From: Escherichia coli
GTDB taxonomy: Bacteria; Pseudomonadota; Gammaproteobacteria; Enterobacterales; Enterobacteriaceae
Assembly (NCBI RefSeq): GCF_030013205.1
Contig: NZ_CP122648.1
DNA: 64,000 nucleotides
Reading direction: 5' to 3' (one strand)
The number at the start of each line of letters is the position of its first letter. The stretch's first letter is position 1. A program made the position numbers and the translations under genes. Shown here one piece after another: positions 7,369 through 43,532 of this stretch. Under the pieces are notes generated by a model. The model ran no database searches, was not told the DNA's origin, and worked only from the letters and a program-made list of their open reading frames with translations.

Positions 7369-8912
7369 AAAACCACCTTCGCCAGATTATCAACGATGGC
7401 TCTGTTCAGACGCGCCTCTTCTTCCAGTTGCGCTTCAAACTCAGCTTTAAGAGCCGTAAAGCGTTCTTTAAAGTCGAAATCGTCTTCTTCATCAGCAAGA
7501 CCAACATAACGGCCAGGTGTCAGCACATAATCGAGTTTAGCAACTTCAGCAATGTCTACTGACGCACAGAAACCAGCGACGTCTTCGTAGTCGCCACCTT
7601 TGTTACGCCAGTTATGATAGGTATCAGCGATGGTTTTTATATCGTCGTCAGAAAGTACTTTGGTACGACGATTAATTAAATGACCGAGATTACGGGCATC
7701 AATAAACAGAATTTCTTTACTACGATCACGATACTGGTTGCTGTTATGACGGTCACGGCGCATAAACCATAATGCAGCAGGGATCTGAGTATTCAGGAAC
7801 AGCTTTGCCGGTAAGTTGACGATACAGTCAATCACATTGGCATCTTTTACCAGTGCAGCACGAATATCACCTTCACCAGAGCTTTTAGAAGTTAATGCCC
7901 CTTTTGCCAGAACAACACCCGCTTGCCCTTTAGGAGACAAGTGATACAAAAAATGTTGCATCCATGCAAAGTTAGCGTTGCCAGCAGGTGGAATGCCATA
8001 TTGCCAGCGGGCATCACCACGAAGCTGCTCACCAGACCAGTCGGAAACGTTAAACGGTGGGTTAGCTATGATAAAATCAGATTTCAAATCTTTGTGAGCA
8101 TCGTTAAGAAATGAACCTTCATTATTCCAGCGAACGTGTTCAGAATTAATCCCACGAATTGCCAGGTTCATTTTTGCCAGACGCCAAGTGGTCTGGTTGG
8201 ACTCCTGCCCATAGATCGAAATATCGTCAATATTTCCCTGATGTGCTTCTACAAATTTTTCTGACTGAACGAACATACCACCAGAACCACAGCAGGGATC
8301 AAAGACACGGCCTTTATAGGGTTCCAGCATGTTAACCAGCAGGCTTACAATAGATTTTGGCGTATAGAACTGGCCGCCTTGTTTGCCTTCTGCCAGTGCA
8401 AATTCACCTAGGAAGTATTCGAATACGTGACCTAAAACGTCAGCAGAGCGTGCTTTGGCATCTCCTAGTGCAATGTTGCCAATCAGATCTATCAGCTCAC
8501 CCAGAACAGTGGCGTCGAGGTTTTGTCGGGCATAGACTTTCGGCAACACACCTTTTAACTGTGGATTGCCCGCTTCGATAAGCTCCATCGCATCATCAAC
8601 CATCTTACCGATTTCAGGAAGCTTGGCCTTAGAAATCAGATAGTTCCAACGTGCAAGCTCAGGGACAAAGAAAACGTTGTAAGCGGTGTACTCGTCTTTG
8701 TCTTCCGGATCAGCACCTGCGAACTCGCCTTTACCGGCTTTCAGCAACTCATAATGAGATTCAAAAGAATCAGAAATGTACTTAAGGAAAATGAGGCCTA
8801 GTACGACGTGCTTGTACTCGGCTGCATCAATGTTTTTACGCAGTTTGTCTGCCGCTTTCCACAGGATGACCTCTAACGGGTCTGTTTTGATTTCTTTAGG
8901 TTTTCTGGCCAT
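7365..8912 (-). CDS. hsdM: Type I R-M N6-adenine DNA methyltransferase subunit (HsdM)
   Basis: 515-aa ORF with SAM-binding [11 protein letters not shown] and catalytic NPPF motifs. Confidence 0.9.
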
Positions 8913-15522: not shown

Positions 15523-15885
15523 TGGTGGAGCTGGCGGGAGTTGAACCCGCGTCCGAAATTCCTACGTCCTCGGTACTACATGCTTAGTCAGTCTTTACAT
15601 TCGCTTGCCAGCTGCGGACGGACACGCCACTAACAAACTAGCCTGATTAAGTTTTAACGCTTCAACCCCAGGCAGGGCTTCCACGCGATCTCTTTTGGGT
15701 TTGACCTCTCTTGATCCCCGTCCTAAGAGCGGAGGCTAGGGAGAGAGGGCTCTAAGCAGGTTATTAAGCTGCTAAAGCGTAGTTTTCGTCGTTTGCGACT
15801 ATTTTTTGCGGCTTTTTACGAGGCCAACCGCCCCTCGGCATGCACCTTGGGTTTCGCAAATCCCGTCGAATCCAGAATCAGCCCC
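15523..15885 (-). ncRNA. ssrA: tmRNA (SsrA), 363 nt
   Basis: Reverse complement begins GGGGCTGATTCTGGATTCGACGGG and ends ...GGGTTCAACTCCCGCCAGCTCCACCA; the tag-template region is present. Confidence 0.95.
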
Positions 15886-33830: not shown

Positions 33831-33878
33831 TCAGGGGAAGGTAAAAAAGAATGCGAAGAAAAACGGTGTGTGTTTCAT
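33831..33878 (-). CDS. pheL: pheA leader peptide PheL (15 aa, Phe-rich)
   Basis: Reverse complement reads ATGAAACACACACCGTTTTTCTTCGCATTCTTTTTTACCTTCCCCTGA (MKHTPFFFAFFFTFP). Confidence 0.9.
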   Translation of the reverse strand: MKHTPFFFAFFFTFP

Positions 33879-33935
33879 GTTTGTTTCCTTAAGTGACTTT
33901 AGTACAGTACCCGTACTGTTTTCACGCTGTCAACA

Positions 33936-33960: not shown

Positions 33961-34046
33961 AAAACCCACTGAATTCAATGTTTTCCCTTTGTTTTCAGTG
34001 GGTTTTGTTATTGGTGGGGGTTACTGATTACCCTATAAAACCCACT
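33961..34046. repeat. Putative prophage attL / integrase arm-site region with AAAACCCACT repeats
   Basis: AAAACCCACTGAA and its reverse complement TTCAGTGGGTTTT form a 13-bp inverted repeat; a third direct copy AAAACCCACT overlaps the int stop codon (approximate coordinates). Confidence 0.5.
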
Positions 34047-35035
34047 TATGTGGATGAAATGTGGATGCCTCCTTTTAATGGATTAAGTGAAATTGCATCC
34101 TGGAGGAAATCAGGAGCGAGGTGCGCATAGGTCATAGTTTGCTGGATCGTGGCGTGCCCCATAATTCGCTGGAGCGTAAGTATATTTCCTCCATTAATCA
34201 TAAAGTGAGCAGCAAAGGTATGGCGTAGAACATGTACAGCCTGTCCTTTTGGTAGGTCTGGCTTAACACTGCGAAGCACCTTGCGATATTCTTCATAATT
34301 GACGTCAAACAAAAGGCCGGATTTCTTTGTTTTGATCTCACTAACAACTTCATCAGAGACAGGAATAATTCGAACTTTTCCGTTTTTAGTTTTGTTAAAC
34401 GTCACGCGATTATTGATGATGTGTTCCGCGCGCAGATTTTTCGCTTCTCCCCATCTCGCCCCAGTACTGAGACAAAGTAGCGTAATCCGCCGAGCATCAC
34501 CGCTTACTGCATCCAGCAATTTGGCGATTTCTTCCGTAGTGAGGTACGTCATTTCGGGTGATTTTCGTTTCAAAGAGGGGAGGGCGCGGAGTGGATTTTC
34601 TCCGTGAAATTCTCCGGCATTTGCCAGGAGTGTAAACATTCCTCCGAGATCCGACTCATCACGCCGAACAGTAGACTCTTTTACTCCCAAGGATAAACGG
34701 GAGCTTCGATAAGCTGCCATGAAACGAGCATTAATCTGGCTAACCCTTGGATCATTCATTTCTTTGATGATTTTTTTCAATCTGGTTAGAACGCCGTTAG
34801 CATATGGCTTATTGCGTCCACCCAATTCCCACCATAACGGAAGCAGATCTGAGAGATGACGTTGCTCTGTTGGCTTTTCAAGCCATTCCTTATCGTGCAT
34901 GTGGCTGAGAACATAGCGCTCAAAGGCCACTGCATCTGCCTTTTTCTTAAAAATCCGCTGGATCCGACGTCCACTTCGGCCACGCGGTCTAACATCCACT
35001 TTATACCGTCCACCATCGAGTGCTTTAATTGCCAT
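34046..35035 (-). CDS. int: P2-type prophage integrase (tyrosine recombinase)
   Basis: Probable start MAIKALDGGRYKVDVRPRGRSGRRIQ...; C-terminus ...HVLRHTFAAHFMINGGNILTLQRIMGHATIQQTMTYAHLAPDFLQDAISLNPL matches P2 Int as recalled. Confidence 0.9.
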   Translation of the reverse strand: MAIKALDGGRYKVDVRPRGRSGRRIQRIFKKKADAVAFERYVLSHMHDKEWLEKPTEQRHLSDLLPLWWELGGRNKPYANGVLTRLKKIIKEMNDPRVSQINARFMAAYRSSRLSLGVKESTVRRDESDLGGMFTLLANAGEFHGENPLRALPSLKRKSPEMTYLTTEEIAKLLDAVSGDARRITLLCLSTGARWGEAKNLRAEHIINNRVTFNKTKNGKVRIIPVSDEVVSEIKTKKSGLLFDVNYEEYRKVLRSVKPDLPKGQAVHVLRHTFAAHFMINGGNILTLQRIMGHATIQQTMTYAHLAPDFLQDAISLNPLKGGIHISST

Positions 35036-35101
35036 TGGCAAGCCCTCCGGTGAAACGAGGAAAGACATTTCCAGTTTGTAAAACGTAAGAATAATAAAGG
35101 G

Positions 35102-35404
35102 TTAACCAATTTTCCTTTCGGATGGGGGTAAATCCGTTGGTTCTTGCCCATAGTGTGCGAGAGCCGGAGCTATCTGCCCGGATTCAGGCGCAATTTTTCC
35201 AGTCATAAACCACAACGCATATTTCTCAAATCTGGGGTTGTTTAGTATTTGCTCAATTACTTCAGCATTAGGGATAGTTTTACCGCTTTCATATCTCCAC
35301 AGAGCATCACGGTTTAAACCAAGCATTTTTGCTGTATCCGGGAGGCTAGTAAGTCTCTCGCTTTCACGCATGATTTTTATGCGCTCTCCAATAGTCATAC
35401 GCAT
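35102..35404 (-). CDS. C: P2 C-type immunity repressor
   Basis: ...MTIGERIKIMRESERLTSLPDTAKMLGLNRDALWRYESGKTIPNAEVIEQILNNPRFEKYALWFMTGKIAPESGQIAPALAHYGQ... resembles P2 C; start codon choice uncertain (35404 or 35397). Confidence 0.8.
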   Translation of the reverse strand: MRMTIGERIKIMRESERLTSLPDTAKMLGLNRDALWRYESGKTIPNAEVIEQILNNPRFEKYALWFMTGKIAPESGQIAPALAHYGQEPTDLPPSERKIG

Positions 35405-35499
35405 GTTGCAATTCTCCAACGTCTGTATTAATGTTTATACAAATGAGTTTGATTTGGGGCATCCGTCGCAAGAAATACCCCAAACAGGGAGATTATCAC

Positions 35500-37129: not shown

Positions 37130-37371
37130 CCATTCTGGACTACATCGCCGCCAATCCGGGTTGTAGCGGTGGAGAAATCGCCGCAGCACTGAATACCCCA
37201 ACCACAGCCATTAATGCGGAGTTACGCCGACTCTGGCGCAGCGGTTCAGTCATAAGAAAAGAGCGCAAAACAGGCGGTCGCTTTTCTTACCAGATAAACC
37301 CGATGCCGTTCGGGTGCGGCAATCCACTTACCAACATGTTTAACCAGCTACTGAAGGAAGCCAGAGCATGA
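37126..37371 (+). CDS. Small winged-helix-like DNA-binding protein
   Basis: MTILDYIAANPGCSGGEIAAALNTPTTAINAELRRLWRSGSVIRKERK... (HTH-like). Confidence 0.45.
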   Translation: MTILDYIAANPGCSGGEIAAALNTPTTAINAELRRLWRSGSVIRKERKTGGRFSYQINPMPFGCGNPLTNMFNQLLKEARA

Positions 37372-37667
37372 GCGCCATCAACCACCAGGAATTACGCGAA
37401 CTGGCGACTGACCTGCAACGAATGGCAACGCCTCAAAAATTACTGGCGTTTCGCGCAATGCTCTCGCCGTCTGCTGTGCTGGCGCTGCTGGATGAGCTGG
37501 AGCACGCCAGAACCACACCTCTCGCCATTCGCCTGACGCTCCATCATGAAATCGCTGATTTCTGCGCGACATTGGAGGCGCCAGGCGAACCGGAAACGCC
37601 GGAAGCAATACAGCAAGAGCTGCTGCAACGCATTGACAAGGTTTTTGATTTTTTTCTGAACCACTAA
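37368..37667 (+). CDS. Hypothetical prophage early protein
   Basis: 99-aa ORF translationally coupled to the previous gene. Confidence 0.4.
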   Translation: MSAINHQELRELATDLQRMATPQKLLAFRAMLSPSAVLALLDELEHARTTPLAIRLTLHHEIADFCATLEAPGEPETPEAIQQELLQRIDKVFDFFLNH

Positions 37668-37989
37668 GAAACCAGAACATGCACACACAAAAAAACCGCT
37701 TGCCATGCCGTAATCAGTCAGGTTACATTTCCGCTGCACCTCATAAAACGGGTGCCGGGATTCTCAACCCGATACAGAGCAAAGCGCATAACCGCGCCAG
37801 CGGTTTTTTTGTGCGTACTGTATTGCCACGTCTTTTTCGCGTCAGAATTATGGCGGGGCGTACGGGGCCGACTTCGGTCGGGCCGGATTCTTTGCTCTCC
37901 GGTGTTGAGAACCCTGTACGTCTCGCCACCCCGAGATTCTCAACTCTGGATGGTGAGTTATTTCTATCACCGAGCAAAGAGGCCACACC

Positions 37990-38220
37990 ATGGCAAACCG
38001 CAAACAGCACCGCGCATACGCTGCGCGTCGTCACATCCAGACTGAAATCAACCGCAGACTTTCCCGCGCATTCCGCGTCGCTAAAATCATGCACATCAAT
38101 ATGCTGCATGAGCGTAGCTGCGAACTTTCAAACCTCTATTCATCCGCTGTTTTCAGCTATCTGGCGGATGATCTGCGCGAGCTTCAGCAGCTCTTCCAGC
38201 AGCAAAACAAACCCCATTAA
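37990..38220 (+). CDS. Hypothetical small basic protein
   Basis: 76-aa ORF MANRKQHRAYAARRHIQTEINRRLSRAF...; preferred over the overlapping Ser-rich 205-aa ORF. Confidence 0.35.
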   Translation: MANRKQHRAYAARRHIQTEINRRLSRAFRVAKIMHINMLHERSCELSNLYSSAVFSYLADDLRELQQLFQQQNKPH

Positions 38221-38292
38221 TTCCTGTTCCGGGCCTTTCCTGCACCTTGCGGCGGGAGGCCTTCGCACATCTGTAGTAAAGAGAATTGCAGC

Positions 38293-38682
38293 ATGATTGA
38301 CGCTCATGACTTCACAAGATGGGTGCGCACACAGGACACCCGTCTGGCTCCCGTTCTTCAGGGATTATTTGATCTCTACATCCGTGGTCGTGACAACAGA
38401 GCACGCACCACAAAACCGGAGAATGCAGACACCCTTTATTTCACAGTAGACGACTGCTACCGCGTGGACTTCACACCACACGGGCTGGCGTTGCACTGCC
38501 TGACACCACACGGCGAATCACTACTGGCGTATTACGACTCCCCGGCCTCCGTATTTGCGGCAATGCTGGCGCATCGCACTGCTGGCGGGTGTGCCTCGCT
38601 GAGTGAATACACCGCTGAATTTGACCGCCTTTCCGCCATCTTCTCGCAGGAGTGGCAGCGCGTGACGGGATACCAGCCATGA
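38293..38682 (+). CDS. Hypothetical protein immediately upstream of gpA (P2 gpB position)
   Basis: 129-aa ORF; stop overlaps the gpA start. Confidence 0.45.
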   Translation: MIDAHDFTRWVRTQDTRLAPVLQGLFDLYIRGRDNRARTTKPENADTLYFTVDDCYRVDFTPHGLALHCLTPHGESLLAYYDSPASVFAAMLAHRTAGGCASLSEYTAEFDRLSAIFSQEWQRVTGYQP

Positions 38683-41504
38683 GTGAGTTTGCATGGAGCT
38701 GGAATGAACCACGACCAGCCATTGATCCGGCCAGATTTACGGAGCGCAGGCAGGAAACTGAAACCGACTTGCAACGCGCCATCCGTTACTACCTTGAGGC
38801 GGACAAAAAGGCCCGGGAAGAACAGGAAGCGAAGGAGGAAGCCTTTTTCGCACAATCCGCCATGGGTAAAAAACTCATGGCATCCCTTGAGGAAGCCGGA
38901 CAGCGTGAAAAGCTGGCACAGAGCATCATCAGTAAGCGCCGGGCAACAGAACAAGACCCAGTAGCCCGTGCCTTTGCCACACTAAAGGCACTACCTGTTT
39001 ATCTGCGTGAACCACTGAGCCGCCACCTCTCTTTCCTGCGCAAAAAACAGGAAGCCGATCGCCAGAAAGGCAAAAAGAGCTGGCAGGCGGAACGCTATGC
39101 ACGCGGAACCCTGCGCAAAATATTCGAACGTCTAGATCGCACTGACGGACGCTGGCTGACACCGGGTTATCGCTCCCTTGCCGGGCGCGAACGCCTGGAC
39201 GATTTGCTTTACCTGCCGCAGCTCAACAAGCACCAGATACAGACGCTGGCCACCATGACCGCGGCGATGTTCAGCAGCACCTTCGAAACACTCTGCGATG
39301 GCTTTGGTGCCAGAGATGGCGAGCTGACCATGGATGTAATGTTGAAGGCTTACCGGATGCTGGCTCGTATCGCATTACGCCTGCACATCATGCCGCCACA
39401 TTACGAAGCCCTGAACAAGAGCGAACCGGATACGGAACTGCTGCCGGGCGCAATCCTTCGCCTGACCTGTGCGGACTGGTGGAAACGCAAACTGTGGCTG
39501 TTACGTTGCGAGTGGAGAGAAGAACAACTCCGCGCCGCCTGTCTGGTTTCCAGAAAAACATCACCCTATCTGAGCCAGGACGCGTTAAGCGAGTTTCGCG
39601 CACAGCGCGAGAAAACACGCGATTTCCTGAAAAGTTTCATGCTGGAAAATGAAGACGGGTTCACGATTGATCTCGAGACGGTGTATTACGCGGGAGTAAG
39701 TAACCCGGTTCACCGTAAGGCAGAAATGATGGCCACCATGAAGGGACTGGAACTTCTGGCCGAAGCCCGTGGCGACAGAGCGGTGTTTCTGACTGTCACC
39801 TGCCCGTCAAAATACCACGCAACAACGGAGAACGGTCATCCGAATCCCAAATGGAACGGGGCCACCATGCGCGACTCCAGCGATTACCTGGTTAACACGT
39901 TTTTTGCGGCGGTCCGCAAGAAACTGAACCGCGACGGCCTGCGCTGGTATGGCATCCGCACGGTGGAGCCTCACCATGACGGCACCGTGCACTGGCATAT
40001 GATGGTCTTTGCCCATCCGGAAGAAATCGACACCATTGTGTCCCACACCCGCGATATTGCCATTCAGGAAGATCGTCACGAGCTGGGCGATGATATTACT
40101 CCGCGCTTTAAGGCGGAGTATGTAGACGGCTCAAAAGGCACGCCAACCAGCTACATCGCCACCTACATCGGAAAGAACCTGGACAGCCGCGCCGTGGATG
40201 GCATCGACCCGAAAACAGGCAAACCACGCGTTGACCACGAAACCGGAAAATCAATGGCCGAGAGCGTGGAGCGCGCCATCGGCTGGGCGCGCCTTCACCG
40301 GGTCCGCCAGTTCCAGTTCTTTGGCATCCCATCCCGTCAGGTGTGGCGTGAACTGCGCCGCCTTGCCAGCCAGATGGCACGCAACCCGGAAGGCCCGCAA
40401 CGGCTGAAGGATGACGCAATGGACGCGGTTCTTGCTGCCGCTGATGCCGGATGTTTTGCCACCTACATTGAGAAACAGGGCGGCGTACTTGTTCCACGCA
40501 AAGACTACCTGATTCGCACCGCCTACGACCTCGCAGATGAGCTGAACGATTACGGCGAACAGAGCGTACAGATTTACGGGATCTGGTCACCACTCATCGG
40601 GGAATCCTCCCGTGTGTGCACGCACCCGGATAACTGGAAGCTGGTAAGACGTAAACCGGAAGCGGAAGACAGCACCCGCGAAAATGGTTTTGACCTTCAG
40701 GGCGGCCCTGCCGCCCCTTGGACTCGTGGCAATAACTGTCCCCGTGTACAGGAAGCAGGCAACAGCGGGACAGAACTGTCGGAAGAGCAACCAACACCGT
40801 GGCCGCAGATCCCTGACGGCGTTGATGTGGATGAATGGATGCGCTCACTGAAACGGCACGAACGCCGGGCGCTGATGCGTTCGCTGCGTGACAAACAGGC
40901 AAAAAACAGCAGTGATGAAATGCAGAGCTGGACACAGAGCCGCAAACAGCAGCGGCCTTTGCCTGATAACCACGAATTACTCGCTAAAGAATGGCGGGAG
41001 TCTGCCGAATCTCTCGGCCTGCATATCGGTGAACAGCAGATGCAGCACCTGTTACGGGGCGGCAGCCTGTACGTTGACGGCAGCATCATTGCACCGCAGG
41101 GATTTGAAATTGTACGCAAACCGGATACCCGCCCGGACAGCCGAATCACGCAGCTCTGGCAGCGCCTGAGCCGTAATCATGGCGTAAGCAGCACGGAGAT
41201 CCGCCATAACCCGGTCGCCAGCTATCTGACACAGCTGGGGGCATCAGACCCTGAAGCCGCCGCACGCCTGGCATCCACACTTCAGCAGGACCAGAACACC
41301 ATGAAAACCCCCGTTACCGTGCTTTCTGACATGCTGCGCGCCATCCGTGACGCAGAGCACGCACAGAGAATCAGTGAAACAACTGAACGCGCCCGCCGCA
41401 AAGCAGACCTGCTGCGGGGTGGCCTGATCAGTGGAAACAAAAAACAGACAGAAACGGGATTCACAAATCCCGTAAATGAGCAAAAAACGTGCCGCGATGT
41501 ATGA
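38679..41504 (+). CDS. A: Rolling-circle replication initiator (P2 gpA-like endonuclease)
   Basis: HUH-type motif ...GTVHWHMMVF... and catalytic-tyrosine region ...SYIATYIGKN...; about 940 aa. Confidence 0.8.
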   Translation: MSEFAWSWNEPRPAIDPARFTERRQETETDLQRAIRYYLEADKKAREEQEAKEEAFFAQSAMGKKLMASLEEAGQREKLAQSIISKRRATEQDPVARAFATLKALPVYLREPLSRHLSFLRKKQEADRQKGKKSWQAERYARGTLRKIFERLDRTDGRWLTPGYRSLAGRERLDDLLYLPQLNKHQIQTLATMTAAMFSSTFETLCDGFGARDGELTMDVMLKAYRMLARIALRLHIMPPHYEALNKSEPDTELLPGAILRLTCADWWKRKLWLLRCEWREEQLRAACLVSRKTSPYLSQDALSEFRAQREKTRDFLKSFMLENEDGFTIDLETVYYAGVSNPVHRKAEMMATMKGLELLAEARGDRAVFLTVTCPSKYHATTENGHPNPKWNGATMRDSSDYLVNTFFAAVRKKLNRDGLRWYGIRTVEPHHDGTVHWHMMVFAHPEEIDTIVSHTRDIAIQEDRHELGDDITPRFKAEYVDGSKGTPTSYIATYIGKNLDSRAVDGIDPKTGKPRVDHETGKSMAESVERAIGWARLHRVRQFQFFGIPSRQVWRELRRLASQMARNPEGPQRLKDDAMDAVLAAADAGCFATYIEKQGGVLVPRKDYLIRTAYDLADELNDYGEQSVQIYGIWSPLIGESSRVCTHPDNWKLVRRKPEAEDSTRENGFDLQGGPAAPWTRGNNCPRVQEAGNSGTELSEEQPTPWPQIPDGVDVDEWMRSLKRHERRALMRSLRDKQAKNSSDEMQSWTQSRKQQRPLPDNHELLAKEWRESAESLGLHIGEQQMQHLLRGGSLYVDGSIIAPQGFEIVRKPDTRPDSRITQLWQRLSRNHGVSSTEIRHNPVASYLTQLGASDPEAAARLASTLQQDQNTMKTPVTVLSDMLRAIRDAEHAQRISETTERARRKADLLRGGLISGNKKQTETGFTNPVNEQKTCRDV

Positions 41505-41580: not shown

Positions 41581-42540
41581 ATGAAAATTTGTATCGACGA
41601 CGGCTCCACCAACATCAAGCTGGCATGGACTGAGAACGGCGAACGCCGCAACGCCATCAGCCCGAACAGCTTCAAGTCGGAATGGTCTGCGCCGTTCGGT
41701 GGCTCGCAGCCTGCGAACTACATGCTTGATGGCGTGCGCTATGGTTTTGATCCGGTCAGCGATCGCTTTGTCCAGACGACCGACACGCAATACCAGTACA
41801 GCGATGTGAATGTCATTGCCATTCATCACGCGCTGGTCAAATCAGGCATCACGCCTCAGGAGGTGGATGTGGTTGTCACCCTGCCACTGAGCGAGTATTT
41901 CGACACAAACGCACAGCCAGACATGGCCAACATCAACCGCAAAAAAGCGAACGTTATGCGCCCGGTGGAGTACCAGAACGGCGAAGCATTCACTATCCGT
42001 AACGTGCGGGTTATGCCTGAATCCATTCCGGCTGGTTTTAAGGCACTGGCTGACATGAGTCCGTTTGAATCCCTGCTGATTGTGGATTTGGGCGGAACCA
42101 CGCTGGATGTGGCAAAGGTTCAGGGGCAACTGGCAGGTATCAGCCAGGTGTTTTGCGATCCACACGTAGGCGTTTCTCTGATGGCTGATGCCGTGCTGTC
42201 GGTGATGGCCACTAACGGTATGCGTACCAGTCACCACATCGCCAATACCATTATTGAGCACCGTCACGATGAAGCCTGGCTACGCCAGCACATTCACAAT
42301 GACGCGCATTACAACAGCCTGATGGCGGTTATTCGTGAAAAGGAGGAAACACTGAAACAACGCGTGATCCGCGCGCTGGCGGGTTTTTCGGGTTACGGGC
42401 GGGTGATGGTTGTAGGTGGAGGAGCGGAGATTGTGGCACCCGCTATCCGCGAAGCCTGCGGAGTTAATGCGACTTTCATCGCGGACGGGGTGCCACAGTT
42501 TGCTCTGGTTAATGGGCTGTACGCAATGGACAAGGAGTAA
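41581..42540 (+). CDS. parM: ParM/StbA-type actin-like segregation ATPase
   Basis: MKICIDDGSTNIKLAWTENG...YSDVNVIAIHHAL...IVDLGGTTLDV...VMVVGGGAEI...; close to plasmid R1 ParM as recalled. Confidence 0.8.
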   Translation: MKICIDDGSTNIKLAWTENGERRNAISPNSFKSEWSAPFGGSQPANYMLDGVRYGFDPVSDRFVQTTDTQYQYSDVNVIAIHHALVKSGITPQEVDVVVTLPLSEYFDTNAQPDMANINRKKANVMRPVEYQNGEAFTIRNVRVMPESIPAGFKALADMSPFESLLIVDLGGTTLDVAKVQGQLAGISQVFCDPHVGVSLMADAVLSVMATNGMRTSHHIANTIIEHRHDEAWLRQHIHNDAHYNSLMAVIREKEETLKQRVIRALAGFSGYGRVMVVGGGAEIVAPAIREACGVNATFIADGVPQFALVNGLYAMDKE

Positions 42541-42544
42541 ATCA

Positions 42545-42859
42545 ATGACGACACCAACCAGACGGATAAGTTTCTATCTGAAGCCCGCCGTCGTCAAGAG
42601 CGAACGGGAGGCGTGCAGTTACCTCGACAGCCTGCCAGCCTCCGAACGCAGCCGCGCACAACGCGCGGCTTTTCTGGCCGGACTGGCTCTTATAAAACGC
42701 ATCCCCGCGTTGGCGTATTCGCTGGCAGAATGGTCAGAAGACGAAATAAGGATGCCACCGCTACCAGTACAGCCTGAAAAACCGGCGAAACCAGCAGCAG
42801 ACAGCGCCCCCCATATGCAGCAGGTGAAGAAGAATATTCAGGCGTTTTTTCCGAAGTGA
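42545..42859 (+). CDS. parR: ParR-type centromere-binding adaptor
   Basis: MTTPTRRISFYLKPAVVKSEREACSYLDSLPASERSRAQRAAFLAGLAL... resembles R1 ParR (ribbon-helix-helix N-terminus). Confidence 0.7.
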   Translation: MTTPTRRISFYLKPAVVKSEREACSYLDSLPASERSRAQRAAFLAGLALIKRIPALAYSLAEWSEDEIRMPPLPVQPEKPAKPAADSAPHMQQVKKNIQAFFPK

Positions 42860-42873
42860 AAACAGGAGTAACT

Positions 42874-43161
42874 ATGTCCACCATTACCAAAGAATGGTTA
42901 CAACGTAAAATCACAGAGTTTAAATCGTGGCGCGAAGACATCCCGTTCGGTCTTGATGAAGACGATCACAATATGTTAATCGCACTGGAAATCGCACTTG
43001 CATCACTGGAAGCAGAGCCAGTGGCATGGATGCACGCAAATAATCCTATTGGAATACCGGCGATAACAAGAAGTAAAGATGTTGCAGACAGCTGGCGCTC
43101 TAAGGGATGGAATGTATTGCCTCTTTATTCACTGACCCGCTCCATCAATTTATGCCATTAA
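42874..43161 (+). CDS. Hypothetical protein (cargo region)
   Basis: MSTITKEWLQRKITEFKSWREDIPFGLDEDDHNMLIALEIALA...; good Shine-Dalgarno (AGGAG). Confidence 0.4.
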   Translation: MSTITKEWLQRKITEFKSWREDIPFGLDEDDHNMLIALEIALASLEAEPVAWMHANNPIGIPAITRSKDVADSWRSKGWNVLPLYSLTRSINLCH

Positions 43162-43172
43162 TGGAAGTAATC

Positions 43173-43532
43173 ATGATGAAAGATAATTCCGGAAGCCAGC
43201 GTGCATCAGTTGCAGTTATGGTAATGATTAAATTTGTGAAACAGTACACCGGAAAGCCAATCTCGCTCCGGCAATTAAGCAAAGAAACCGTTTCACTGTC
43301 ATATCTGGAGCAAATATTCAGATATTTACGGGAAAGTAGCCTGGTAAAAGCCACACGCGGCCCGGGTGGTGGATATATCCCAACAAAAGAAAATTACAGT
43401 GTTGGTGATATTGTCCGGGCAATGAAATGTTCCGGATTATATACACAGCACGTTATTCTGGCTGCACTGGATAATATTTCTTTAACCAGCCTGCAGGAAG
43501 ACACAAATTATCAGTTGTCTGCCATTGAATAA
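43173..43532 (+). CDS. Rrf2-family (IscR/NsrR-like) transcriptional regulator, short form without a C-terminal Cys cluster
   Basis: ...ISLRQLSKETVSLSYLEQIFRYLRESSLVKATRGPGGGYIPTKENYSVGDIVRAM... (typical Rrf2 wing/HTH signature). Confidence 0.65.
   Translation: MMKDNSGSQRASVAVMVMIKFVKQYTGKPISLRQLSKETVSLSYLEQIFRYLRESSLVKATRGPGGGYIPTKENYSVGDIVRAMKCSGLYTQHVILAALDNISLTSLQEDTNYQLSAIE

Follow-up and report, generated by a model that had tools for sequence, protein, structure and literature searches.

The subject of this study is a short interval, positions 37668-37989 (322 nucleotides, nt), in the early operon of a P2-family prophage of Escherichia coli. It is part of a stretch of 64,000 nt of the contig NZ_CP122648.1, which is referred to as the window throughout. 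A preliminary description of this DNA had noticed a gap of about 320 base pairs (bp) and interpreted it as a structured RNA or as an origin-like or protein-binding element. The gap lies between a 99-amino-acid (aa) Ead/Ea22-like open reading frame (ORF), whose TAA stop has its last base at 37667, and a 76-aa ORF starting with an ATG at 37990. Very probably, it represents an IsrK(seqA)-C4(CI) RNA immunity module of the type present in P4, P1/P7, N15, and Gifsy-1, here located in the early operon of a P88-like (Xuanwuvirus) phage. By every sequence feature tested, the locus belongs to both RNA families. The module is an already known kind of system, which existing models detect readily.

IsrK- and C4-like RNAs in the interval

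A comparison of the whole window with the Rfam covariance models placed two matches inside the gap, both exceeding the gathering score. These matches, their substructures, and the upstream promoter-like site are the following:

37700-37728, + strand: promoter-like site (-35 box TTGCCA at 37700-37705, 17-nt spacer, -10 box TTACAT at 37723-37728)
37736-37810, + strand: isrK/seqA-like RNA (RF01394), 62.8 bits (gathering score 50) over all 77 model positions
37736-37755, + strand: IsrK hairpin 1
37756-37771, + strand: IsrK hairpin 2, with the b1 site in its loop
37761-37768, + strand: b1 site TTCTCAAC, in the loop of IsrK hairpin 2 and within the first copy of the direct repeat GATTCTCAAC
37776-37784, + strand: a1 site AGAGCAAAG, single-stranded in IsrK
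37790-37805, + strand: IsrK intrinsic terminator from a terminator scan, followed by a T7 (U) run
37846-37933, + strand: CI-like C4 antisense RNA (RF01695), 78.5 bits (gathering score 45) over all 87 model positions, E = 1e-13
37851-37867 paired with 37912-37928, + strand: C4 outer stem
37868-37881, + strand: C4 helix 2, the UUCG hairpin
37882-37903, + strand: C4 hairpin 2, with a' (CUUUGCUCU, 37890-37898) in its loop
37904-37911, + strand: C4 bulge with b' (GUUGAGAA)

Folding of both strands supported the plus-strand orientation of the two RNAs. On this strand the IsrK region (37736-37810) folded better than its shuffles, with z = -3.1, and the C4 region (37846-37933) reached z = -4.9; the values of the reverse strands were -1.2 and -2.6, respectively. 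The minimum free energy (MFE) structure of the C4 region is the consensus structure of the family.

The structure of C4 was also compared across nine divergent modules, namely the window, P4, Gifsy-1, two lambdoid phages, two lambdoid prophages, an N15-like plasmid prophage, and a P4-like island. Compensatory changes were found in 14 of 28 pairs of this alignment. The alignment cells were paired in 98.8% of the cases, compared to 35-47% (about 40%) with slid partners, and none of 500 shuffles reached the observed values. The isrK-C4 tandem scored above threshold in all eight comparison elements, i.e. P4, Gifsy-1, and the six lambdoid, N15-like, and P4-like elements.

The features listed in the preliminary description are all present and not due to chance. 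Its direct repeat GATTCTCAAC occurs at 37759-37768 and 37935-37944 (2 matches versus 0.16 expected). The hairpin GGCCGAC-TTCG-GTCGGGCC was confirmed at 37866-37884, but its true helix comprises only 5 bp (CCGAC, 37868-37872, with GUCGG, 37877-37881), and the outer G and C bases are part of neighboring helices. The UUCG hairpin, the direct repeats, and one arm of a long inverted repeat discussed below are explained, because the two Rfam families and their target sites cover them.

A consensus scan predicts a transcription start at about 37736, and the isrK match begins 7 nt past the -10 box. Both promoter hexamers and their spacing are kept in the relative STEC17-183 despite a different spacer sequence. 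The promoter-like site may be the counterpart of P4 PLE and is a candidate for the IsrK promoter. A second promoter-like site (TTGCCA-17-AATTAT, 37823-37851) was rejected. Its -35 box is not conserved, with TCGCCA or TCGCCG in relatives, and its predicted start would fall within the C4 outer stem; it was treated as non-functional or minor. Three sub-threshold Rfam matches, CRISPR-DR33 (21.7 bits), STnc410 (18 bits), and c4-a1b1 (15.9 bits), were taken as chance or partial matches.

Two of the loci compared had additional features. In L086, a lambdoid E. coli prophage, a DicF RNA match (54.7 bits) was found at 1226-1276, about 230 nt upstream of the isrK-C4 pair, and kilR and recE are located downstream. 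L062 (IMGVR_UViG_2582580934_000004) carries a 17-nt duplication in the loop of C4 hairpin 2, aligned to positions 37887-37900 of the window. The duplication joins two different a' specificities, ATTCTTTGCTCT and CTTGTGTAG, and suggests a hybrid (recombinant) C4 in which two recognition loops are present.

Target sites of C4 and the epsilon-like gene

Two further sites and two genes follow C4 on the same strand:

37937-37944, + strand: b2 target TTCTCAAC, complementary to b', within the second copy of GATTCTCAAC and just 3' of C4
37972-37981, + strand: a2 target GAGCAAAGAG, complementary to a' and overlapping the Shine-Dalgarno sequence AAGAGG (37977-37982)
37990-38220, + strand: 76-aa gene of the P4-epsilon-like 'derepression' (antirepressor) type, predicted to be the regulated target
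38293-38682, + strand: 129-aa ORF (phrog_3237) with no assigned function, followed by the gpA-type gene in the same operon

Both b1 and b2 are complementary to b', and a1, a', and a2 form a second trio of this kind. The Shine-Dalgarno sequence overlapped by a2 is located 8 nt before the ATG of the 76-aa gene. In the MFE structure of positions 37736-38000 (z = -5.1), the C4 loops pair in cis with the leader containing a2 and b2.

Relatives of the interval were collected by a scan with the 76-aa protein, which yielded 80 viral contigs and 52 distinct interval sequences. Among these, the a and b sites vary blockwise and always in concert. The regularly aligned relatives fall into 12 a-types and 5 b-types, and a sixth b-type was found in L070. 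Cognate pairing amounts to 8-9 of 9 positions in all 12 a-types and to 7-8 of 8 positions in all five b-types, for the upstream as well as the downstream sites; for non-cognate pairs the averages are 5.9 of 9 and 4.45 of 8, respectively. Reassortment of the types has produced at least 15 combinations. Pairing of the C4-like RNA with both targets is most strongly supported by this three-way covariation, which also suggests that immunity specificity has diversified. The structured RNA assumed in the preliminary description is hence supported by two Rfam families above the gathering score and by the covariation of both the C4 structure and its target sites.

The alternative part of the earlier assumption, an origin-like or protein-binding DNA element, did not hold. 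The position just upstream of replication genes and the inverted repeat flanking the structured segment could suggest an origin of replication, a protein-bound DNA element, or an msr/msd locus of the retron type. The interval contains no tandem repeats or iterons, its GC content stays at 0.475-0.545 without an AT-rich dip, and no reverse transcriptase gene is located nearby, whereas the two RNA families and their target sites account for every feature. In P2-type phages the origin lies inside gene A. The origin or iteron element and the retron flanked by inverted repeats were therefore rejected, and explanations of this kind have next to no credibility compared to the RNA immunity module.

The product of the 76-aa ORF matched the Pfam family Derepression (PF25738) with 29.4 bits, above the cut-off of 27, whereas P4 epsilon scores 170 bits. 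BLASTP with P4 epsilon gave 33% identity over 51 aa (E = 5e-9), and phrog_3688 was matched over the full length (1.5e-44). The 129-aa ORF showed no similarity to P4 orf151. The 72-nt spacer between these two genes (38221-38292) contains a GC-rich hairpin, GGCCUUUCCUGC...GCGGGAGGCC, without a U-tract; its fold has a z value of only -1.35, yet it is kept in relatives.

The overlapping 205-aa frame and the long inverted repeat

Two features extend across or flank the RNA genes:

37679-38296, + strand: 205-aa eta-like ORF ('ash family protein' of PGAP), spanning IsrK, the terminator, C4, and, in the +1 frame, the whole 76-aa gene
37683-37703, no strand assigned: 5' arm of a 21-nt inverted repeat, containing an A7 tract and CCGC, located immediately upstream of and overlapping the -35 box and corresponding to codons 2-9 of the eta-like ORF

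The 205-aa ORF was present as first noticed, and starts with an ATG upstream of the -35 box at 37700. It ends in ATGA and overlaps with this motif the start codon of the 129-aa ORF. The earlier view that it looks non-coding is correct in part. Over the 76-aa gene, the variable columns among the relatives are distributed as 15, 13, and 27 over the codon positions of the 76-aa frame, with 26 synonymous and 31 non-synonymous changes. In the 205-aa frame the same region shows 13 synonymous versus 44 non-synonymous changes, concentrated at its second codon positions. Because of this difference, the 76-aa frame is the one under protein-level constraint, and the long ORF shows none there; it also misses the Pfam threshold.

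The conservation of the open frame argues against the earlier view. The 205-aa frame is open in 49 of the 52 distinct relatives, including some with insertions and deletions netting to a multiple of three. Between 37690 and 37989, stop triplets were found 4, 11, and 15 times in phases 0, 1, and 2, and the four in phase 0 are singletons from two frameshifted sequences and one point mutant. The frame is open as well in divergent relatives with only 74-75% identity over the epsilon-like gene. Over IsrK its phase is that of P4 eta (AGILNP versus AGRENP). In the nine distant modules, the orf45/eta phase, marked by a conserved AUG at the 5' edge of C4 which is the first AUG of Gifsy-1 orf45, has no stop within C4 in 9 of 9 cases, and each of the other two frames contains stops in 6 of 9. 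Six modules have one ORF spanning both RNAs, and these are exactly the ones in which the spacing from isrK to C4 is divisible by three.

By position, the 205-aa ORF is the counterpart of eta in P4 and orf45 in Gifsy-1, two ORFs that overlap RNA genes and for which translation has been shown by experiment (PMC10111431; PMC4825925). In the part of PMC10111431 that deals with eta (citing Forti et al. 1999), eta is described as beginning upstream of the constitutive PLE and spanning seqA and CI. It is translated solely from the upstream promoter, its translation prevents termination, and Kil is its C-terminal part (the same part of PMC10111431). From the open-frame analysis, the 205-aa ORF is probably translated to allow read-through. 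An intrinsic terminator lies in the middle of an essential early operon, and translation across it would provide a simple passage for lytic transcripts.

Another explanation would be that the 205-aa ORF encodes a genuine regulatory protein of the 'Ash family' and that its RNA-like features are incidental. The name given by PGAP, weak matches to Pfam Phage_ASH and to a PHROG 'transcriptional regulator', and the conserved open frame are in line with this explanation. All family matches, however, are confined to aa 4-121, a stretch that coincides exactly with the RNA module, and the Phage_ASH match itself is restricted to aa 16-111, again the RNA region. A strong Phage_ASH match (59.7 bits) was obtained for the historical 137-aa 'cI' ORF of P4. 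Since this ORF overlaps the CI/C4 RNA gene, the Pfam model largely describes the translation of an RNA gene. The immunity of P4 is carried by RNA. Moreover, the a and b sites vary jointly as RNA partners, with several codons rewritten at once, and over the 76-aa gene the variation falls mainly at second codon positions of the 205-aa frame.

The annotation of this region is also inconsistent, since nearly identical prophages carry different labels. RefSeq/PGAP labels of the same DNA include 'ash family protein', 'derepression protein', 'hypothetical protein', and the N-terminus of a 'Rha family' protein. The 205-aa ORF is annotated as 'ash family protein' in some genomes, and the 76-aa ORF as 'derepression protein' instead in 95%-identical prophages. 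In lambdoid relatives the RNA region has been absorbed by PGAP into a 'Rha family' gene. NCBIfam gave no match for any of four ORFs. Taken together, a genuine Ash protein appears very improbable, and an eta-like read-through ORF is preferred.

Several points weigh against the interpretation as an immunity module with an eta-like ORF. The Pfam score of the 205-aa ORF for Phage_ASH (PF10554) is 19.8 bits and thus below the cut-off of 26, and a kil-type start preceded by a Shine-Dalgarno sequence is lacking in its frame; the Shine-Dalgarno sequence at a2 serves the epsilon-like ORF, which is in a different frame. In synonymous-codon shuffles, the +1 frame stayed open in 74% of the cases in the window, 22% in L091, and 29% in L092. 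The openness over the epsilon-like part is therefore not significant alone and may be due to chance. The relatives in the frame test are close kin (87-97% identical), and their counts are not independent. The c4-a1b1 match was weak (E = 0.35) and below threshold. Furthermore, transcription, start site, termination efficiency, C4 processing, repression, polarity, and the role of translation are what we infer for this locus.

The long inverted repeat was confirmed as an exact repeat. AAAAAAACCGCT at 37689-37700 and its reverse complement at 37799-37810 are 98 nt apart and are the only two matches in the window, versus 0.01 expected from shuffles. With 90% complementarity the repeat extends to 21 nt (37683-37703 and 37796-37816). 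It is statistically real. The 3' arm is the 3' half of the IsrK terminator together with its U-tract. In the MFE structure of 37683-37816 (z = -5.0) the two arms pair, forming a helix in place of the terminator hairpin. Among the relatives, the sequence of either arm is essentially invariant.

The repeat might act as an RNA switch, in which AAAAAAACCGCU in transcripts from the early promoter Pe pairs with the 3' half of the terminator and prevents termination, or in which codons 2-9 of the eta-like ORF are bound in trans by the 3' end of IsrK. Such a function would agree with the statistical significance of the repeat, with the displacement of the terminator hairpin, and with the location of the 5' arm upstream of the internal start, so that it is present in Pe transcripts only. 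In L068, both runs are shorter by one base. In other relatives the lengths of the A- and T-runs are not consistently matched, with A5 versus T7 in STEC17-183 and T5 versus A7 in L043, and the invariant arms show no covariation. The 5' arm has the sequence of the 5' half of the terminator and competes for the 3' half instead of sequestering the 5' half. An antiterminator role would be possible but kinetically poor, because the 5' arm duplicates this half. Conservation could also be explained without any RNA function by the overlap with the -35 box and by the placement of the A-tract as in an UP-element, and the repeat is absent from P4 and Gifsy-1. A role as RNA switch is therefore regarded as unlikely.

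Proposed function, known systems, and prophage context

Returning to the IsrK-C4 immunity module, the two RNAs would most likely shut off the next gene, which encodes the 76-aa epsilon-like protein. A promoter inside the eta-like ORF would start an RNA at about 37736, and most transcripts would stop at the intrinsic terminator, resulting in an IsrK-like RNA of about 75 nt with b1 and a1. Transcripts reading through the leaky terminator would carry the C4-like RNA, which may be excised as a stable RNA of about 80 nt, with RNase P acting at the 5' end in analogy to P1 and P4. Its a' and b' segments would then pair with a2 and b2 in the leader of the epsilon-like gene. Translation of this gene would be blocked because a2 covers the Shine-Dalgarno sequence, and expression of the 129-aa ORF and of the replication gene A would probably be lowered too by polarity. 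As a' and b' can also pair with a1 and b1, the short IsrK RNA may act as a competing decoy, as in Gifsy-1. Upon firing of Pe, ribosomes would translate the eta-like ORF over the terminator and the RNA structures. Lytic transcripts from Pe would thereby read through regardless of C4, as described for P4 eta.

The mechanistic background on P4 was drawn from summaries (PMC10111431, PMC3632133, PMC4825925), the first of which covers eta, kil, and PLE. The P4 immunity region (PLE - seqA - CI RNA - seqC - kil/eta - epsilon - alpha) contains both RNA families in the same order, with isrK at 8615-8692 and C4 at 8420-8507, followed by kil, epsilon, and alpha. As in P4, the promoter (predicted here) is located inside a long ORF which spans both RNAs and reads the IsrK part in the same phase, a Shine-Dalgarno sequence is overlapped by the downstream target site, and an epsilon-family gene is followed by a replication gene. 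In contrast to the satellite P4, the host element here is a complete P2-family phage, and its replication gene encodes a gpA-type HUH endonuclease instead of the alpha primase. The first gene past a2 is the epsilon-like gene in a frame other than that of the long ORF, without an in-frame kil. The epsilon-like gene is overlapped completely by the long ORF, which terminates on the ATG of the following gene. The spacer between isrK and C4 comprises 35 nt compared to 107 nt in P4, and the 21-nt inverted repeat is specific to the locus studied here in this comparison.

The immI region of P1 and P7 (a1 b1 - c4 - a2 b2 - icd - ant) likewise encodes an RNA of the C4 family with two recognition segments, each with one upstream and one downstream site. 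The first gene is small, and its ribosome-binding site is masked by the downstream site. A further point in common is that specificity types reportedly differ between heteroimmune relatives (Citron & Schuster 1990; Biere et al. 1992). The predicted regulated gene is epsilon-like in our case, unlike icd/ant in P1 and P7. No eta-type spanning ORF is known in P1. The P1-type layout is more closely represented by the N15-like plasmid prophage with Icd-like and BRO-N genes downstream.

The Gifsy-1 region of Salmonella (isrK - orf45 (STnc1160) - anrP) contains both Rfam families in tandem, and its IsrK, orf45, and STnc1160 have been described together with the translation of orf45 (PMC4825925). It shares with our locus an IsrK with its own promoter and leaky terminator (here predicted in silico), an ORF phase with a conserved AUG at the 5' edge of C4 (PMC4825925), and a downstream gene of the antirepressor type. 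In lysogens of Gifsy-1, expression of both IsrK and STnc1160 (the C4 homologue) is high, and the lytic genes are silent (PMC7067206). Unlike the locus studied here, the ORF over C4 is a separate one of 45 aa, the spacing from isrK to C4 is not a multiple of three, and the target is AnrP of the Rha/Bro type. In Gifsy-1, IsrK was shown to activate in trans. The literature search yielded no paper on this module in P88-like or Xuanwuvirus phages.

The main value of these results is in annotation, because consistent labels can be assigned to the two RNAs (IsrK and C4), to the epsilon-like gene, and to the eta-like ORF that would permit read-through. That so many specificity types vary together suggests that heteroimmunity among prophages of the P2 family is under diversifying selection, an idea that extends the known biology of P1/P7 and P4 and opens no new question. 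A more far-reaching and doubtful interpretation is that P88-like P2-family phages possess a combinatorial RNA immunity code of at least 12 a-types, at least 6 b-types, and at least 15 combinations, which controls a P4-epsilon-type derepressor, together with a group-specific 21-nt inverted repeat that would link the start of eta-like ORF translation to the IsrK terminator. If this were true, complete helper-type phages would use satellite-style RNA immunity to decide on the derepression of co-resident P2-like prophages, satellites, and superinfecting relatives, and the coupling of repeat and terminator would be a regulatory layer not described for P4.

The 563-bp stretch 37668-38230 was matched in 1,932 of 5,426 complete E. 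coli genomes (about one third), and the region 37300-38700 of the window is 100% identical to strain ETEC4079. The closest named phages are P88 and other Xuanwuvirus members with 86-89% identity over the interval. The prophage adjoins pheL, and the Phe (pheA) leader was detected at 33754-33879 on the - strand (132.2 bits) in the Rfam scan of the window. The following prophage genes surround the module:

34046-35068, - strand: integrase gene, directly beside pheL
35102-35419, - strand: helix-turn-helix (HTH) repressor-like gene
from 35431 on, + strand: early operon, with the gene of a gpA-type replication endonuclease as its last gene
38652-41504, + strand: P2 gpA-type replication endonuclease gene (Pfam Phage_GPA, 434 bits)

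The location of the integrase gene beside pheL indicates an attachment site in the pheL-proximal intergenic region and not at ssrA; the tmRNA gene was found at 15523-15885 on the - strand (292.8 bits). Downstream of gene A, the region 41581-43500 of the window contains genes for ParM-like segregation, partition/stability, and an Rrf2-family regulator. This is the position of variable cargo in P2, and these genes could form a partition system of a phage-plasmid lifestyle or be accessory cargo.

Many P88-like relatives carry cargo of about 1.1 kilobases between the Ead/Ea22-like ORF and the RNA module. Examples are L006, L008, L010, and others (at about 590-1697), L090 (632-1192), and L091 (313-1137), and the cargo includes a gene for a DNA-binding protein or for an SPFH-domain protein. 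Homology picks up again near 37678-37686. This position is the module's left border and a hotspot of variable insertions.

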